DNA of 5,923 nucleotides from a virus (Duplodnaviria > Heunggongvirae > Uroviricota > Caudoviricetes): the IMG/VR virus record IMGVR_UViG_2671180460_000007, positions 1-5,923 of that record; one strand, written 5' to 3'. This document shows, piece by piece, positions 1-5,923 of the stretch (within the stretch, counting starts at the first letter, position 1; the number at the start of each line of letters is the position of its first letter). Under the pieces are notes generated by a model. That model made no database searches. It saw only the letters and a list, made by a program, of their open reading frames with translations, and was not told the DNA's origin. The translations under genes and the position numbers were made by a program.

Positions 1-156
1 TCTCTGGGGACGATTTACCGACGTTTTTATAACGGACATTTTCTGCCTGTAGACCAGGAAAGCGCACAGGTTCTTTCTACACCAATGCAGCAGCCCCAGC
101 CGCGAAGATACAGTAACAAACGAACTGACAGCAGTAAGATGGAGCGTTTCTTTTGA
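1..156 (+). CDS. 3' end of an upstream ORF (partial, runs off the left edge); hypothetical phage protein
   Basis: Frame 1 is open from base 1 to TGA at 154-156 (ends ...[14 protein letters not shown]); the other two + frames hit stops within the first 52 nt. Its stop overlaps the TTG at 153 of the next ORF. No family recognised. Confidence 0.3.
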   Translation, partial: SLGTIYRRFYNGHFLPVDQESAQVLSTPMQQPQPRRYSNKRTDSSKMERFF

Positions 157-410
157 ACAACCAGACAATGACTTTTACCCCTGAACAATTACGTAAACAG
201 GCACAGGAAATGTTGCGACAAGCGGAACAACTGGAAAAAACAGGTGTAACAAAAGATACCATTCGTCGGGATATGGTTCCCGCGCTCAGAGAATTGATGC
301 AGGCGAAACACCGTGCACAAAAAGCGGTGGATGAGCTGGTGGATTGTGTGGCAGAGCTGGAAACCAAAGTTGGAAAGTTTGAAAAACTGGTGCATGAGGT
401 GCTGCGCTGA
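153..410 (+). CDS. Hypothetical small phage protein (80-85 aa), predicted coiled-coil rich, immediately upstream of Q
   Basis: Track ORF 153..410. Start is ambiguous: TTG at 153 has GGAG 8 nt upstream; the first ATG is at 168 with no clear SD. Protein is rich in E/K/R/Q/L heptad-like stretches ([19 protein letters not shown]...). Stop TGA 408-410 overlaps the ATG of the next gene (TGATG). Confidence 0.55.
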
Positions 411-793
411 TGCGTGATATTCAGATGGTTCTTGAGCGTTGGGGAGCGTGGGTGGCAAATAATCATGAGGATGTTACCTGGTCATCGATTGCAGCCGGAT
501 TCAAGGGGCTTATTCCTTCAAAGGTTAAATCGCGACCGCAATGTTGTGACGATGATGCGATGGTTATTTGTGGTTGCATGGCTCGTCTGAAAAAGAGCAA
601 CAATGACTTGCATGATTTGCTGGTGGATTATTACGTTTGGGGCATGACGTTTATGAGGCTGGCGCAGAAGCATAATTGCTCTGATGGATATATCGGGAAA
701 AGGTTACAGAAAGCAGAGGGAATAATCGAAGGTATGTTAATGGCATTAGACATTTGCTTAGAGATGGATATTGATGTTACTAAGCTTAATTAA
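410..793 (+). CDS. Late-gene antitermination protein Q (phage 82 / DLP12 QuuD-like family)
   Basis: 127-aa ORF starting [14 protein letters not shown] with a Cys cluster ([12 protein letters not shown]) consistent with a zinc-binding Q antiterminator; size and N-terminus match my recollection of the DLP12 QuuD / 82-type Q family. ATG overlaps the upstream stop; stop TAA at 791-793. Confidence 0.8.
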
Positions 794-925
794 TACGATT
801 ATTTTTTAATAAAAAACGGGGCGTAAAAACACCCCCAAGATAAAGGGTAATATATAACAGAAAGTTTAGATAGTAAGAAGCAGGGCTCTAATGCTTCTTA
901 AAGAAGTGGCTTGAGGGAGCCACTT

Positions 926-958
926 ATATGCTGAGAAGATAAAACCTTCTCAGCATAT
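926..958. terminator. Perfect 13-bp stem / 7-nt loop hairpin between the convergent Q and porin genes; probable (bidirectional) terminator
   Basis: atatgctgagaag (926-938), loop ataaaac, cttctcagcatat (946-958) is an exact reverse complement; followed on + strand by cctttatt. Two further hairpins lie just upstream (874-900, 9-bp stem; 904-925, 7-bp stem). Confidence 0.5.
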
Positions 959-973
959 CCTTTATTAACCAGA

Positions 974-2077
974 TTAGAACTGGTATACCATACCTACAGC
1001 AACGATATCGTCAGTGTTTACACCAAGAGCTTTAGTAAAGTCATTTTTGTCAAGCAGGTTGATTTTGTAATCAACGAAGGTAGACATATTTTTGTTGAAA
1101 TAATAAGTTGCGCCAACATCAACATATTTGACTAAATCCTGGTCACCAAAAATGCCAAGATCTTTACCTTTTGATTGCAGATAAGCAACAGACGGACGCA
1201 GACCGAAATCGAACTGATATTGTGCAACAGCTTCGAAGTTTTGTGCTTTATTAGCCACAAAGTAATCTGCGAATTTAGTCATATTCTGGGTTTCTGAATA
1301 GGTTGTTGCCAGATAAACGTTGTTTGCGTCGTATTTCAGACCTGCAGCCCAGACTTCTGCATTTTCGCCGGAAGCAAATACTCCTGGGAGAAGTTTACCC
1401 AATTTGACTTGAGTGTCGGTACGATCAGATTTCGCATACGTTGCACCAATGCCGAAACCTTCGTATTCATAGGTCGCAGAGAAACCAAAACCATCGCCAT
1501 TGCCTTTGGTGTAGTTATCTAAGCTACTACGATCATGATTATTCTTACCCTGGTACTGTGCAGCAAAATTCAGACCATCAACCAGACCAAAGAAGTCGTT
1601 GTTACGATAAGTTGCAACACCAGTGGTACGACCAGTCATGAATACATCTGTTTGGGTCCAGGTATCTCCACCGAATTCTGGCAGGACGTCAGTCCATGCA
1701 CCGATATCGTATGCTACACCGTAGTTACGACCGTAATCGACGGAGCCGTAGTCACCGAATTTAAGCCCTGCAAATGCAAGACGGGTTTTATCTTTGGCTG
1801 CTCCCTGTTCTTCAGTACGGTTTCCTTTGAATTCATATTCCCACTGACCGAAACCAGTCAGTTGATCGTTGATCTGAGTTTCGCCTTTGAAACCCAGACG
1901 AGCATAAGTTGTGTCGCCATCATTTGCATCGTTAGAGGAGAAGTAGTGCTTAGCATTAACTTTTCCGTACAGATCCAACTTGTTGCTGTCTTTATTATAA
2001 ATCTCTGCTGCCTGAGCAGACATCGCCATCAGTACTGATGCAGCCACAGCAGAAATTGCCACCGTTAATTTTTTCAT
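974..2077 (-). CDS. nmpC: General diffusion porin of the OmpC/OmpF family, prophage-borne NmpC / Lc / OmpD type
   Basis: Signal peptide [23 protein letters not shown] followed by [24 protein letters not shown]..., Gly/Tyr/Asp-rich beta-barrel composition and C-terminal ...VGMVYQF aromatic terminus, all hallmarks of enterobacterial 16-strand porins. The track start at 2080 is GTG; the adjacent ATG at 2077 with AGGG about 6 nt upstream is the more likely start. Stop TAA at 974-976 (minus). Confidence 0.9.
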
Positions 2078-2080
2078 CAC

Positions 2081-2584
2081 GAACCCTTTTTTTTGAACTA
2101 TTTTTAAAAAATGATGTCACTGCGCGATAAATATTCATCTAATCAATGTGGTTATTTCAAGAGTCAAGTTTAATTTAGTGATTGATAATATGATCAAGAT
2201 CTCATTTATGCGCGTTGGTATAATTTGTTGATATTTTTGTGTAATGCGGAATTTAATTAATGAAATACATTATTTACTCATTTTTCATTGAAAAATAACA
2301 ATGATGTATTTGATGTAATATGTGTTATTCGTATGTTTTGTTTTGTTATGTTGCATTAACATTTGAGTGGCGTATTTGTGGTTTACGTACGTAAAAATTC
2401 AATTATGATGTTAAGAGTGGTTGCTTCGACTCCTTCCTTAAAACCGCCGTCGGGCTGTTTTTTGTACCCGAAAAACGGCACAGGACGTTAAACGTGCTGG
2501 TGGTTGCGAATACTGGTCTTTCAGCTTGCTGGCTTTTTCGACAAGAGTTATTGGTATGTCACGTTAACCAGAAAGGAAAAAGAC
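2081..2584. promoter_or_regulatory. About 500-bp AT-rich intergenic region upstream of the porin gene and of the divergent small ORF; presumed porin promoter/regulatory region
   Basis: Very AT-rich, ORF-free stretch directly 5' of the minus-strand porin start. Porin genes of this family carry long AT-rich upstream regions with regulator sites (established knowledge); no individual binding site could be pinned by eye. Confidence 0.4.
2216..2224 (+). promoter_or_regulatory. Candidate extended -10 promoter element (TGgTATAAT) on the + strand, divergent from the porin gene
   Basis: ttGGTATAAT at 2215-2224 gives a perfect TATAAT hexamer (2219-2224) with TG at 2216-2217; no good -35, which extended -10 promoters do not need. 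Would transcribe rightwards toward the small ORF at 2585. Confidence 0.25.
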
Positions 2585-2782
2585 ATGCTAAAACAGCAGG
2601 ATATGACCGAAACTGCCAGAGTGGTGTTTAATGAATTAAGCGTCACCGAACCGGCGACCGTCGGGGAAATTGCGCAGAATACTTACCTTTCACGCGAACG
2701 CTGCCAGTTAATACTGACCCAGCTTGTTATGGCGGGTCTGGCAGATTATCAGTTCGGTTGTTACAGACGCCTTCCGCAGTGA
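2585..2782 (+). CDS. Small (65 aa) putative DNA-binding protein, helix-turn-helix / winged-helix-like
   Basis: Track ORF 2504..2782 begins at TTG; the first ATG is at 2585, with AAGGA (2573-2577) 7 nt upstream, which I take as the start. The segment ATVGEIAQNTYLSRERCQLILTQLVMAGL looks like a helix-turn-helix recognition unit. Lies 150 bp upstream of the methyltransferase gene on the same strand. Confidence 0.5.
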   Translation: MLKQQDMTETARVVFNELSVTEPATVGEIAQNTYLSRERCQLILTQLVMAGLADYQFGCYRRLPQ

Positions 2783-2932
2783 AGGCTTTTTAATTTGTGG
2801 TAATGGGCGGCTGGTGGGTGTTAGCGGCACCTGCCAGCCATCTGCTCATGCGTTGGGGTCACAAGCAAACCTCAGGCCCATCTGCTTTGCGCAAAAGCGG
2901 TATGAGCCTATCAGAGAAGTGCTTATTGATCT

Positions 2933-3997
2933 ATGGCTAATACTGTAAAAATATCCAGTTGTGAGTTAATCAACGCTGATTGCCTGGAATTTATCCGGAC
3001 CTTACCGGAAAACTCTGTCGATCTGATAGTCACAGACCCGCCATACTTTAAAGTGAAGCCCGAGGGCTGGGATAACCAGTGGAAGGGGGACGATGATTAC
3101 CTGAAATGGCTGGCTCAGTGTCTGGCGCAGTTCTGGCGGGTACTGAAACCTGCCGGAAGTCTCTACCTGTTCTGTGGTCATCGCCTGGCATCTGATATCG
3201 AAATCATGATGCGTGAACGCTTTAATGTGCTGAACCACATTATCTGGGCGAAGCCGTCCGGACGCTGGAATGGGTGCAACAAGGAAAGCCTGCGGGCGTA
3301 TTTTCCGGCAACAGAACGCATTCTGTTTGCTGAACATTATCAGGGGCCATACCAGCCAAAAAATGACGGCTATGCAACAAAGGGGCGCGAGCTTAAACAG
3401 CATGTCATGGCCCCGCTGATTTCTTACTTTCGTGATGCGCGCGAATCACTGGGGATAACGTCAAAACAGATAGCAGAAGCCACCGGAAAGAAAAACATGG
3501 CTTCGCACTGGTTTGGTACCAGTCAGTGGCAGTTACCGAATGAGGCCGATTACAGTAAACTGCAGGCGCTGTTTGCACGTGTGGCGGCAGAAAAACACCA
3601 GCGCGGTGAACTGGAGCAGCCACACCACCAGCTGGTCAGCACATACAGCGAACTGAACCGGCAATATGTCAGCCTGCTGGAGGAATACAAATCACTGCGG
3701 CGTTATTTTTCCGTATCGGCTGTCGTTCCTTATACGGATGTCTGGACGCACAAGCCCGTGCAGTATTATCCGGGCAAACATCCCTGTGAAAAACCGGCGG
3801 ATATGTTGCGTCAGATAATTACTGCCAGCAGCCGTCCAGGCGATTTGGTCGCAGATTTTTTTATGGGGTCAGGTTCCACGATAAAAGCGGCACTGTTGCT
3901 GGGACGCAGGGCGATTGGCGTGGAACTGGAAAAAGAACGTTTTGAACAGACCGTCGGTGAAATAATGGAGCAGGCAGAGAAACCAGGTAGTGCATAA
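2933..3997 (+). CDS. DNA methyltransferase, beta-class amino-methyltransferase (N6-adenine type most likely; N4-cytosine not excluded); orphan within this window
   Basis: 354-aa ORF with catalytic motif IV DPPY near the N-terminus (DLIVTDPPYF) and AdoMet-binding motif I FxGxG near the C-terminus (DFFMGSGST). This IV-before-I order is the beta-class permutation; DPPY rather than SPPY favours N6-adenine. No endonuclease-like ORF is adjacent. Confidence 0.88.
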   Translation: MANTVKISSCELINADCLEFIRTLPENSVDLIVTDPPYFKVKPEGWDNQWKGDDDYLKWLAQCLAQFWRVLKPAGSLYLFCGHRLASDIEIMMRERFNVLNHIIWAKPSGRWNGCNKESLRAYFPATERILFAEHYQGPYQPKNDGYATKGRELKQHVMAPLISYFRDARESLGITSKQIAEATGKKNMASHWFGTSQWQLPNEADYSKLQALFARVAAEKHQRGELEQPHHQLVSTYSELNRQYVSLLEEYKSLRRYFSVSAVVPYTDVWTHKPVQYYPGKHPCEKPADMLRQIITASSRPGDLVADFFMGSGSTIKAALLLGRRAIGVELEKERFEQTVGEIMEQAEKPGSA

Positions 3998-4280
3998 TAA
4001 GATAAGAACGGAAAACTTATTATCACGCAGAATGCGCGACGCGAACTAGGCAAGGTGACCGTACTGGCAGTTTCATTGCTCATCTGCCAGTTTTTGACAC
4101 AGGTTGTGTACTGGTTGCGAAAGCACGTGGTTGGATGAGTTCTGCGTTCACATACAGGGTGGTGTGAAGCCAGTTTTTTTCTGTGTATTCAGATGGCGTT
4201 CTGATTTTATGACGAGTTACGTGAACATCAGGGTGTTATGAGTTGGGACGTCATCTTAATGCAACATATTTAATTATGTG

Positions 4281-4379
4281 ATGCCTTATCGGGATAAGGC
4301 ATGATTTCTGGTGTTCTTTGCAATGCAGACATCTCATTTATCAGATAATCATGCTTTATCCCGATGATGCATCAGGCAT
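4281..4379. repeat. Long near-perfect inverted repeat (about 28 paired positions, 31-nt central loop) in the non-coding region between methyltransferase and tRNAs
   Basis: Arm A 4288-4306 (atcgggataaggcatgatt) pairs with arm B 4347-4365 (aatcatgctttatcccgat): 18 Watson-Crick pairs plus one G:T. Extended by tctg (4307-4310) with caga (4342-4345) and by atgcc (4281-4285) with ggcat (4375-4379). Each arm also holds a local 10-bp palindrome (atgccttatc gg gataaggcat at 4281-4302; tgatgcatca at 4365-4374). Confidence 0.55.
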
Positions 4380-4416
4380 TGTCTTATGAGGTTTCATTGT
4401 ACTCTTTTATTTGCGG

Positions 4417-4447
4417 CCCACTGGTTTTTTACTGGTGGGTATTTTTT
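4417..4447 (+). terminator. Candidate rho-independent terminator downstream of the methyltransferase gene
   Basis: cccactgg (4417-4424), loop tttttta, ctggtggg (4432-4439): 8-bp stem including two G:U pairs, followed by tattttttgg. Confidence 0.35.
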
Positions 4448-4519
4448 GGCTTTTTGTGAAATGCTGCAGTAAATAAAATTTTTATTCAAACAAATTTACA
4501 ATTGCGCGAGTAATAAATA

Positions 4520-4547
4520 TTGCATCCGGAATATTTATTAGTATTAT
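4520..4547 (+). promoter_or_regulatory. Candidate sigma70 promoter for the tRNA transcription unit
   Basis: TTGCAT (4520-4525), 16-bp spacer, TATTAT (4542-4547); AT-rich UP-like sequence upstream (aaataaaatttttattcaaacaaattt); predicted start about 60 nt upstream of the first tRNA. Confidence 0.35.
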
Positions 4548-4614
4548 TTCTGCGGTTCCGAGGGGATGGTACGATATGTATCGGGGCATCTCATCTCACG
4601 CCCGAGGAACCAAC

Positions 4615-4690
<76 letters not shown>

Positions 4691-4693
4691 TAT

Positions 4694-4768
<75 letters not shown>

Positions 4769-5033
4769 CAGTAACTAAGGCGAGATTGTTTCAGGCACTG
4801 ATGTAATATAATATATGTGGGGTGTTTTTTTCTGACTCCTTACCACGCCCTGTTCTGTAATGAGTGATATCAGTACAGTTCCAGTGCCACTTTTTTACAA
4901 CACCGGAATAATGCATTATTAGCCAGGATTTTGTTTTTTTCTTCTGCAAATGTATTATCCCGATGTTGTAAACATCGACAAAAACAAAACTGTGATTAGT
5001 CACATACTAAGTCAAGCCCGGAAATACATCCTT

Positions 5034-5059
5034 AACCGCCGCACCAGGCGGTTTTTTTT
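5034..5059 (+). terminator. Strong rho-independent terminator closing the tRNA transcription unit
   Basis: aaccgcc (5034-5040), loop gcacca, ggcggtt (5047-5053): perfect 7-bp stem followed by a run of 8 T (5052-5059). Confidence 0.7.
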
Positions 5060-5233
5060 ATTCCGTTTTTTATGGACCGTTCAGTCGGACCTTTTTCATA
5101 TCCGCGTCACGCCCGGCGCACATCAAAAACCACAGAGCCTTTCAGTGGCGAGCTTACGGGATGGTCAGTGTGACTTTCTCTGTGGGCTGGTCACCCCCGG
5201 GCGGAGGCTCACCCACTAAAAGGAAAAGTAACG

Positions 5234-5659
5234 ATGTTTGGTATTTTCAAAAAGAAAACCCGCAAGGCCATTACTGAAGTGAAGAAGATGGAGAACCGCG
5301 ACGCAGTGGAGGCGACCGTCTGGGGCGCGTATTCCATAGCATTCGCCGACGGCACCTGTGATGCGAAAGAAATCGCTGTGCTGGAGAAAACCATTGCAGC
5401 ACTTCCTGCTTTTGCGCCGTTCTCGGGTGAGATTGCACAAATGAGTGCAAATATCCGCGCCCGTTATGAAGCGTCACCTCGTAGTGCGAATGCTCAGGCT
5501 TTGCGTGAACTGGCTGATGTGGCAGGAACCACCGAAGCGGTTGATGTGCTGTGCCTGTGTCTTGATATTGCTGACCAGGATGGCATTGGTCCGGATGAAG
5601 AAGCACAGCTCAAGAAAATTGCTCAGGCGCTGCAGTTGCCGCTGGAGCAGTACCTGTGA
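5234..5659 (+). CDS. TerB-fold (tellurite-resistance TerB-like) small soluble protein, 141 aa
   Basis: Good SD (AAGGAAAAG) 8 nt before ATG. Two copies of the TerB-type signature: AFADGTCDAKEIAVLEKTIAAL and LDIADQDGIGPDEEAQLKKIAQAL (acidic ADG/DQDG motif followed by E and an amphipathic helix). No predicted transmembrane segment. Confidence 0.75.
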   Translation: MFGIFKKKTRKAITEVKKMENRDAVEATVWGAYSIAFADGTCDAKEIAVLEKTIAALPAFAPFSGEIAQMSANIRARYEASPRSANAQALRELADVAGTTEAVDVLCLCLDIADQDGIGPDEEAQLKKIAQALQLPLEQYL

Positions 5660-5805
5660 AAAGTGCGCGCCTTGTGCTGGCTGCCATCCTGCTGTTTCTG
5701 GTGGTGGTGGATTTCACCGGACGGCTGATGTCGGTGCTGGCAGATGGTGTGCTGGTGGCGATGGCGCTGGTCGTGCTCCGGCCTTTACTGCGTAAATCTG
5801 AATAG
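5656..5805 (+). CDS. Small hydrophobic ORF (49 aa, two predicted membrane-spanning segments), translationally coupled to the TerB-like gene; not in the supplied ORF track
   Basis: GTG at 5656 overlaps the TerB-like stop (cTGTGAaa; GTG 5656-5658, TGA 5657-5659); GGAG at 5644-5647 lies 8 nt upstream. Translation VKSARLVLAAILLFLVVVDFTGRLMSVLADGVLVAMALVVLRPLLRKSE*: basic N-terminus, two hydrophobic stretches, basic C-terminus. Stop TAG at 5803-5805. In this frame the nearest upstream stop is 5596-5598 and GTG 5656 is the first plausible start. Confidence 0.4.
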   Translation: MKSARLVLAAILLFLVVVDFTGRLMSVLADGVLVAMALVVLRPLLRKSE

Positions 5806-5855
5806 CACCACACAAAAGGTATCTGCGGGTGCCTTTGACGGGGTGTTTTTTTACG

Positions 5856-5876
5856 GGCCGACAGTGGCCTTTTTTT
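5856..5876 (+). terminator. Weak terminator-like hairpin plus T-run after the small hydrophobic ORF
   Basis: ggcc (5856-5859), loop gacagt, ggcc (5866-5869), followed by tttttttattt. The stem is only 4-5 bp, so this would be leaky at best. Confidence 0.25.
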
Positions 5877-5894
5877 ATTTACAGGAGAAAAAGT

Positions 5895-5923
5895 ATGTCT
5901 GAACCCTTATCCGGTTCCGGCAC
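5895..5923 (+). CDS. 5' end of a downstream gene (partial, runs off the right edge); product unknown
   Basis: ATG at 5895 preceded by a strong SD (AGGAG at 5883-5887, 7-nt spacing); reads MSEPLSGSG... to the window end. Not recognisable as a lambda- or 21-type holin or endolysin N-terminus. Confidence 0.4.

Follow-up and report, generated by a model that had tools for sequence, protein, structure and literature searches.

The DNA analyzed here, hereafter the window, is a stretch of 5,923 nt (positions 1 to 5,923 of IMG/VR record IMGVR_UViG_2671180460_000007, Caudoviricetes) that covers the late regulatory region of a lambdoid prophage, and it contains between its methylase and tRNA genes a real inverted repeat at 4279-4374, which we call hp1. 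Comparison with related sequences indicates that hp1 is a diverged extra copy of a structurally conserved hairpin of about 100 nt that normally lies 3' of the last tRNA gene in some Escherichia coli lambdoid prophages, and a related hairpin, hp2, absent from an earlier sequence-only reading of this DNA, lies in the same window. hp1 most likely behaves like a phage intercistronic processing or stability hairpin belonging to a tRNA-associated family not found in Rfam 15. We tentatively read hp1 as a cis-acting stem-loop of the + strand RNA, an additional copy of the family that would be cut by RNase III or would stabilize the transcript. The elements on which the argument turns are the following.

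2933-3997, + strand: N6/N4 DNA methylase gene (PF01555)
4279-4374, + strand: hp1, with 5' arm 4279-4313, apical region 4314-4338, and 3' arm 4339-4374
4615-4690, + strand: tRNA-Thr(UGU)
4694-4768, + strand: tRNA-Gly(UCC)
4888-4979, + strand: hp2, a long hairpin and paralogue of hp1, with its stem at 4894-4972

The methylase, the tRNAs, and the late operon are all encoded on the + strand. The 2 tRNA genes (4615-4768) stand between hp1, which is 240 nt 5' of tRNA-Thr and upstream of both an intrinsic terminator (T3) and the tRNA promoter region, and hp2, which is 3' of them.

A repeat search returned the arms of hp1 as 4279-4306 and 4347-4374, each of 28 nt, 89% complementary and 40 nt apart. 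The sequence bears out exactly the 19-nt core described in the sequence-only reading, with 18 Watson-Crick pairs and one G:T between 4288-4306 (ATCGGGATAAGGCATGATT) and 4347-4365. Other parts of that description needed correction: in place of outer helices of 4 and 5 bp there are 2 pairs, a C.T mismatch, and 6 pairs (4279-4284 with 4369-4374), and in place of a 31-nt loop there is an apical region of about 25 nt (4314-4338), since 7 more pairs form inward (4307-4313 with 4339-4345, with a bulge at 4346). From outside to inside, the helix predicted for the + strand comprises 6 pairs, the C.T mismatch, 21 pairs, the one-base bulge, and 7 pairs, and the apical region holds a small stem of its own (4317-4321 with 4325-4329). 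The proposed folding of 4270-4390 held for both strands when set against 200 dinucleotide shuffles, with the + strand RNA at -50.1 kcal/mol (z = -6.6; shuffles -26.9 +/- 3.5 kcal/mol on average, with 0 of 200 folding as well) and the - strand RNA at -39.2 kcal/mol (z = -5.1). The predicted + strand helix has the length of an RNase III substrate, at least about 20 bp (two turns) of near-continuous double-stranded RNA (dsRNA), and it is on the strand of the surrounding genes. The 3' arm is followed by GGCATTGTCTTATG, which lacks a T run, so hp1 is not an intrinsic terminator; the sole part of it listed as terminator-like was a small local hairpin at 4281-4302, which is weak and has the tail GATTTCTGGT.

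Homologues of hp1 are few. A 141-nt query against 5426 complete E. coli genomes found 52F4 at 95.6% identity and RM8082 and AREA_497 at 85%, and scans of IMG/VR and the JGI metagenomes for both arm cores added one prophage contig, L060. All of these copies share one genomic context. The same metagenome scan for both arm cores otherwise gave just 4 inverted repeats, all unrelated, and a scan of genome contigs anchored on the block upstream of hp1 gave only one misbinned contig. The 141-nt query (4260-4400) had no blastn match in 50,697 phage records, nor had the stretches 4030-4470 and 4860-5010 in the same records, and the 441-nt block 4030-4470, which includes hp1, had no match in 72,556 plasmids. 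A 30-nt arm, searched in E. coli at E <= 10, matched nothing beyond the same 3 loci except for one chance-level 24-nt plasmid match.

The pattern of substitution within hp1 carries a strand signature. In an alignment of 5 hp1 sequences, 97% of stem cells are paired, and the one-sided base changes, which affect 5 pairs, all leave a G:U or U:G pair on the + strand. A further G:U pair does not vary, and the non-standard cells include no A.C; read from the - strand, or as DNA, the wobble positions would instead hold A.C mismatches. Since transitions in a helix should produce + and - strand wobbles equally, this asymmetry points to selection on the + strand RNA, with modest strength (roughly P = 0.01-0.03). 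The + strand also folds 6-15 kcal/mol better than the - strand in all 5 homologues, and in RM8082 and AREA_497 the 22-nt core is perfectly paired.

The second hairpin, hp2, lies 119 nt 3' of tRNA-Gly and was flagged by a chance match to an Rfam miRNA model together with a third exact copy of the 10-mer TTATCCCGAT (0.29 expected). It is followed by a further feature.

5034-5061, + strand: intrinsic terminator 3' of hp2, with its sequence kept in relatives, which is probably the end of the tRNA operon

By blastn, hp2 occurs in 28 of the 5426 E. coli genomes at 70-94% identity, and a pattern scan combined with a covariance model found it in about 33 prophage loci of IMG/VR. Wherever the flank was available, the first hp2-type copy followed the last tRNA of the cluster on the same strand at a distance of 102-129 nt, a position that the family takes in more than 35 prophage loci. 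An alignment of 8 sequences had 95.4% of its cells paired and 4 pairs changed on both sides, with a covariation of 0.280 against 0.219 for shuffles (reached by 0 of 500) and at most 0.149 for slid controls. When 30 distinct sequences were fitted to the model, 96.8% of cells were paired and 8 pairs (29 cells) had changed on both sides, with a covariation of 0.293 against 0.219 +/- 0.007 for shuffles (again reached by 0 of 500) and at most 0.114 for slid controls. Covariation across these 30 sequences supports the hp2 fold. Across the family a sequence core, CGGRAU..GCAU / AUGC..AUYCCG, is retained, and most copies of hp2 also retain a GGCAGGG segment, unpaired, close to the apex. Searches with Rfam 15 gave no match to hp1 or hp2 at the gathering threshold, the best scores being chance matches to MIR4387 (26 bits, threshold 84) and mir-983 (42 bits, threshold 100), and in 7 related loci no Rfam 15 family covered hp2.

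Some related prophages carry other candidate RNAs near these hairpins. STnc100 scored below threshold (27.9 bits, gathering score 47) just 3' of an hp2-type hairpin, and isrJ did so (29.3 bits, gathering score 37) just 5' of a tRNA cluster; the loci concerned (L158:675-838, L149:1803-1998 on the - strand, and L149:2628-2700 on the - strand) have no counterpart in the window. Further, tRNA-like calls of 82 nt with odd anticodons (Val aac, Tyr ata) were made at L149:1469-1550, L201:3299-3380, L166:795-876, and similar places, about 430-650 nt after an hp2-type hairpin and, in L201 and L166, between both hairpin copies. These may be degenerate or unusual tRNA-like elements.

A covariance model built from hp2 sequences alone (R1) links the 2 hairpins. 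It finds hp1 on the + strand in 5 of 5 loci at 30-38 bits (- strand 23-28 bits), with the window copy matched at 4274-4380 (30.4 bits on the + strand, 23.1 on the - strand) and its 4 homologues at 31-38 bits. At E <= 1 the model had no match in 982 kb of unrelated viral DNA, a control made up of the loci from a loose first viral pattern scan (at least 119 loci, mostly chance). In the Q-S region of lambda, and in the rest of the 50-kb 52F4 prophage, the model likewise matched nothing. Scores of 31-38 bits are also reached by unrelated long hairpins with the same core pattern (L213, L209), so the score alone is no proof of homology, and direct alignment was tested. hp1 aligned end to end with an hp2 variant (L152:396-497) at a score of 53, compared with maxima of 40 in 2000 dinucleotide shuffles and 37 in 2000 hairpin-preserving randomizations. 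Within the family hp1 is atypically placed, outside the interval 102-129 nt 3' of a last tRNA, and other copies are also off position (L143:747-847, L060:4298-4402, and L003/L004:5183-5283, as well as second copies in L225, L166, and L201). In the RM8082-type loci (L060; L003, L004), another member with a different outer stem follows about 60 nt after hp1, making tandem hairpins; the stretch fetched for these loci has no tRNA genes.

Each arm of hp1 contains a smaller palindrome, and these nested elements bear on both the processing of an RNA and the binding of a protein to DNA.

4281-4302: P1, local palindrome (ATGCCTTATC GG GATAAGGCAT) inside the 5' arm, 4281-4290 pairing with 4293-4302
4351-4372: P2, local palindrome (ATGCTTTATC CC GATGATGCAT), near-perfect in RM8082 and AREA_497

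The suggestion that each arm overlaps a 10-bp palindrome is right for P1, which is perfect, and goes too far for P2, which in the window has 8 Watson-Crick pairs, one wobble, and one mismatch in 10. The local palindromes of both arms give the paired duplex a dyad axis at 4291/4292 : 4361/4362. In the family, the local 4+4 pairs are 84.6% paired, compared with 20-53% when slid, and they show no covariation, the observed value being reached by 481 of 500 shuffles; in the hp2 of the window the local symmetry is lost and the long-range pairs are kept. The P1 hairpin alone folds at -10.6 kcal/mol. A switch between 2 local hairpins and the long hairpin was considered and rejected, as the local form reaches -14.5 kcal/mol against -50.1, which leaves no credible equilibrium.

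Among the functions put forward in the sequence-only reading, that of an RNase III processing or stability hairpin appears to fit the evidence best, given the + strand RNA signature and the covarying family, with cleavage itself a prediction. A near-continuous helix of about 35-40 bp with a dyad-symmetric core is the type of substrate expected for the homodimeric host enzyme RNase III. Under this reading the region would be crossed by transcription, most plausibly late transcription antiterminated by Q that passes through 3 terminator-like sites, T1, T2, and T3; the hairpin would form, and RNase III would cut near the dyad center at 4291/4292 : 4361/4362. The cut would part the methylase and leader RNA on its 5' side from the RNA of the tRNA and lysis genes and leave stem-capped ends, which could affect RNA stability, tRNA maturation, and the expression of the tRNA and lysis genes. 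If hp2 were cut likewise, the tRNA cassette would be freed from the long late transcript. Alternatively, within the same reading, hp1 may serve as a stabilizing stem in the late or the tRNA transcript.

Phages offer close parallels for such hairpins. RNase III processing hairpins lie between the genes of phage operons, as at the T7 sites R0.3 to R18.5, and sites of this kind are known from the late and N-leader transcripts of lambda. Like the T7 and lambda RNase III hairpins, hp1 and hp2 are intergenic and on the sense strand, occur as several mutually similar copies per genome, and have a sufficiently long helix with a dyad-symmetric core, with small internal mismatches in hp2; as in the lambda late leader, they stand upstream of lysis genes. 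Unlike the T7 and lambda sites, they have no sequence similarity to them (50,697 phage records by blastn; the Q-S region of lambda by the model), and their helices are longer and more perfect than those of T7, are tied to the tRNA clusters of temperate prophages, and are predicted substrates. The long stems that flank 16S and 23S rRNA are cut by RNase III to release the rRNAs, and hp1 and hp2 similarly place dsRNA on both sides of stable-RNA genes within a longer precursor. In the rRNA stems, however, the 5' flank pairs with the 3' flank, whereas hp1 and hp2 are each self-contained and most prophages have only the 3' hairpin. RNase III processing sites are recorded in the lambda late transcript by Daniels et al. 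1988, as that work is cited in PMC7547250 (reference 49 there); a full-text literature search for RNase III sites of the lambda late transcript returned nothing on these sites in lambda.

Several points weigh against a processing or stability role, besides the model scores reached by unrelated hairpins. T2 and T3 flank hp1 and no convincing sigma-70 promoter lies just upstream, so that hp1 may hardly be transcribed in the lysogen. RNase III has little sequence specificity, yet the core and, in most hp2 copies, the GGCAGGG segment are kept, which suggests some other partner of greater specificity. hp1 is also rare and can be dispensed with: C5-type prophages have the same flanks and the tRNA module without it. 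No hp1 pair has changed on both sides among the 5 sequences, and the stem divergence between the 2 hp1 lineages, about 10%, is about equal to that of the flanks; because stem and flank diverge similarly, the case for selection on hp1 rests mainly on the wobble asymmetry.

The principal rival, possible though not likely, takes the hairpin for the body of a small RNA (sRNA), either stable or regulatory, in place of a processing signal. hp1, a 41-nt spacer, and T3 (about 4279-4447, roughly 170 nt) would then form one RNA, and hp2, its spacer, and the terminator 5034-5061 a second, freed from the tRNA operon transcript. Both copies consist of a long hairpin, 40-60 nt of single strand, and an intrinsic terminator with a U tail; T3 carries a compensatory change; hp2 lies within the tRNA transcription unit, ahead of its terminator; and the family keeps both its sequence core and the unpaired GGCAGGG motif, all of which would suit an sRNA, as would the parallel of the small stable RNAs in the tRNA cluster of phage T4. 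There is precedent in the late leader of lambdoid phages, which is known to yield Hfq-bound sRNAs: lambda 6S RNA and LPR2 (bioRxiv 10.1101/2024.10.31.621285) and StxS (PMC7547250). Like these, hp1 and hp2 are non-coding, lie in the Q-to-lysis region, and end at intrinsic terminators; unlike these, which start at PR' directly after Q, they occur kilobases further on, next to tRNAs, with no sequence similarity to them and no mapped promoter of their own. Against an sRNA, the T2-hp1 interval contains no sigma-70-like promoter, and a near-perfect helix of about 35-40 bp would itself be a substrate of RNase III in E. coli and would probably not stay whole. No homology links the spacer 3' of hp1 to that of hp2, T3 is missing in RM8082-type loci, and the sRNA families of Rfam give no match.

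We consider it unlikely that the hairpins form a new structured-RNA class confined to tRNA operons in temperate phages of enterobacteria. If they did, they could be small stable RNAs or riboregulators, or RNAs that bind a protein through the CGGRAU/AUYCCG core and the GGCAGGG loop; made together with the phage tRNAs, they would act on functions of host or phage, for example tRNA maturation, translation, or defence, and hp1 with T3 would be a second, independently terminated gene copy. The tRNA cluster of phage T4 contains small stable RNAs, species 1 and 2, of long-unknown function, and hp2 resembles them in being a structured non-tRNA element beside phage tRNA genes that would be transcribed together with them, T4 being a different type of phage. 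Nothing points to a categorically new mechanism.

That hp1 is a functionless, slowly decaying duplicate of an hp2-type trailer hairpin in a mosaic non-coding insert we regard as quite unlikely. Its confinement to 3 of 5426 genomes and one IMG/VR contig, the related prophages that keep the flanks without it, the similar divergence of stem and flanks, and the absence of compensatory changes on both sides would all be expected of such a remnant, and K_EC180-type loci hold only a degraded version (minimum free energy about -25 kcal/mol for the surrounding 150-nt segment). Against decay, all 5 one-sided stem changes gave + strand G:U pairs and none gave an A.C mismatch, the helix remains 97% paired despite about 10% divergence, and the 22-nt core pairs perfectly in RM8082 and AREA_497.

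There is a slim chance that the two 22-bp palindromes are a pair of double-stranded DNA operators for a dimeric regulator, which might act by DNA looping or by keeping transcription out of the tRNA and lysis module. In favor are the perfect 10+2+10 symmetry of P1, the near-perfect symmetry of P2 in RM8082 and AREA_497, and the tendency of the family to local dyad symmetry; the centers of P1 and P2 are 70 bp apart in the window and 73 bp apart in RM8082-type loci. Upstream of the methylase lies a winged-helix open reading frame (ORF) at 2585-2782 (weak TrmB match, E = 0.0026) that might supply the regulator. However, within the 50-kb prophage of 52F4 neither the palindrome nor its half-site recurs above chance, and 52F4 carries hp1 without the winged-helix ORF and without the methylase, the lysis cassette being the only gene content common to all hp1 loci. 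The complementarity runs 7-13 bp past the palindromes into non-palindromic sequence, the covariation in the family concerns the long-range and not the local pairs, a wobble asymmetry would be meaningless for DNA binding, and the hp2 of the window pairs over long range with no local palindrome. The dimeric regulator site offered in the sequence-only reading is weakly possible given the palindromic arms; with no further copy in the 52F4 prophage and with long-range pairing that covaries, the palindrome, pairing, and gene-content evidence together make an operator pair unlikely and fit a symmetric dsRNA site.

The REP/BIME origin suggested by the resemblance noted in the sequence-only reading, to which a short likeness of GCCTTATC to REP adds no more than a lead, did not survive the homology search. 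REP/BIME and ERIC (IRU) elements are scattered over the chromosome, with tens to hundreds of copies in each, and hp1 is like them an imperfect, intergenic palindrome that would form a hairpin as RNA, with a MITE-like layout of about 96 bp and inverted arms of 28 nt. Unlike them it is prophage-specific, confined to a single genomic context, present once per genome in 3 of 5426 E. coli genomes, and without plasmid or phage database matches, its 30-nt arm having no further E. coli match bar the chance-level plasmid one. Moreover, the inner helix core (CGGRAU..GCAU) is kept and the outer stem ends vary (TGATGCC in hp1 vs TTTACAACA in hp2), the reverse of terminal inverted repeats, and no direct duplication flanks hp1 in the window sequence. 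Since hp1 is absent from 5423 of 5426 E. coli genomes and has no dispersed copies, REP, BIME, ERIC, and other MITE-like mobile repeats or their remnants are scarcely credible explanations and were rejected on copy number.

Returning to the processing or stability reading, its interest lies in the setting. tRNA clusters are common in phages, and their expression and excision from long late transcripts are little studied in temperate ones; a conserved, covarying hairpin of about 100 nt at a fixed distance from the last tRNA is a testable handle on the processing of such clusters. The question that it opens is whether lambdoid prophage tRNA cargo is punctuated by RNase III in the manner of T7 or is accompanied by a new small RNA.

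In alignments with relatives, hp1 falls within a non-coding insert (about 430 bp, roughly 4040-4470) that is optional and that most methylase-tRNA prophages, for example, UMNF18 and SE11, lack. From 5' to 3' the insert consists of T1, a conserved block with T2, hp1, and T3.

4040-4270, + strand: conserved non-coding block 5' of hp1
4063-4096, + strand: T1, putative terminator-like hairpin just after the methylase (8-bp stem, 13-nt loop, T5)
4142-4180, + strand: T2, putative terminator-like hairpin followed by T7 (a run of 7 T)
4416-4447, + strand: T3, strong intrinsic terminator (stem 4416-4425 with 4431-4440, then ATTTTTT; -15.3 kcal/mol)

T2 has an internal loop and was therefore missed by a simple terminator scan; across all 4 locus types its stem is kept and its loop is variable. 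T3 begins 41 nt 3' of hp1, and its stem differs between the window and 52F4 by a compensatory A-T to G-C change. Of the 5426 E. coli genomes, 58 have the upstream block, which there follows 3 genes in the antiterminator position (the 127-aa Q type, a Q of 221-229 aa, and a DUF1133 protein); as 3 different genes precede it, the block is not bound to one Q specificity. It contains a GCGAAAGC stem-loop in addition to T2 with its U7 tail and could encode a short sRNA or an RNA derived from a 3' untranslated region. A scan of 4000-4600 found no sigma-70-like promoter before hp1, and the candidates picked by eye were poor.

The idea that hp1 marks a recombination junction between cargo modules is loosely supported, with one boundary (C5 type) at the left base of hp1 near 4284 and the other (RM8082 type) within the T3 loop at about 4431. 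C5-type prophages keep the block to about 4284, have hp1 and T3 replaced by about 60 unrelated bases, and become homologous again from the tRNA promoter region, near 4474; in RM8082-type prophages hp1 is present and divergence begins inside the T3 loop; and K_EC180-type prophages have the degraded hairpin mentioned above. A model in which the tRNA module is a cassette between direct repeats formed by the 3' arms of hp1 and hp2 was rejected, as the type A/B breakpoint lies in the T3 loop and not in an arm and the flanks of hp1 and hp2 are not homologous. Resemblances to Fur, DnaA, and LexA boxes were noted by eye; every one was partial, and none was used.

The remaining features of the window are as follows. 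Among named phages the nearest is the Stx2e phage phiP27, whose Q, methylase, and tRNA layout is similar.

410-793: Q antiterminator of 127 aa (PF06530, E = 1e-53)
974-2080, antisense: porin gene (PF00267)
2585-2782: winged-helix ORF of 65 aa, with the weak TrmB match given above
5234-5659: TerB-domain ORF

The winged-helix ORF is kept just upstream of the methylase in many prophages and may be a controller-type regulator of the methylase. The gap between methylase and tRNAs, described in the sequence-only reading as 600 bp and free of ORFs, measures 617 bp from the methylase stop (3997) to tRNA-Thr (4615) and does hold one + strand ORF of at least 40 aa, 4104-4241 with a TTG start, which was rejected as a protein since indels break it in relatives. 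Also rejected as a small protein was the ORF 4950-5219, which overlaps hp2, contains the terminator, and has no Pfam match. At 4386-4472, a 28-codon ORF that spans T3 would encode a hydrophobic peptide (MRFHCTLLFAAHWFFTGGYFLAFCEMLQ) resembling a type I toxin; its start is CTG in the 52F4 and RM8082 types and it is frameshifted in 52F4, so it was discarded as a toxin and is probably spurious.

Two further symmetric elements precede the tRNA genes. A perfect 11-bp inverted repeat at 4511-4540 (TAATAAATATT, 8 nt, AATATTTATTA) overlaps the probable tRNA promoter (TTGCAT, 16 nt, TATTAT, about 4519-4546) and could be an operator or mere AT-rich symmetry. A leader hairpin at 4554-4611 (GGTTCC...GGAACC, -23 kcal/mol), immediately 5' of tRNA-Thr, has its ends kept in UMNF18- and SE11-type prophages and may be a precursor-processing structure. 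Terminator-like sites are in excess over the window from 700 to 5300, with 14 found against 4.2 +/- 2.0 expected, which is consistent with a late operon whose cargo modules each end in a terminator of their own and are read through when Q acts.

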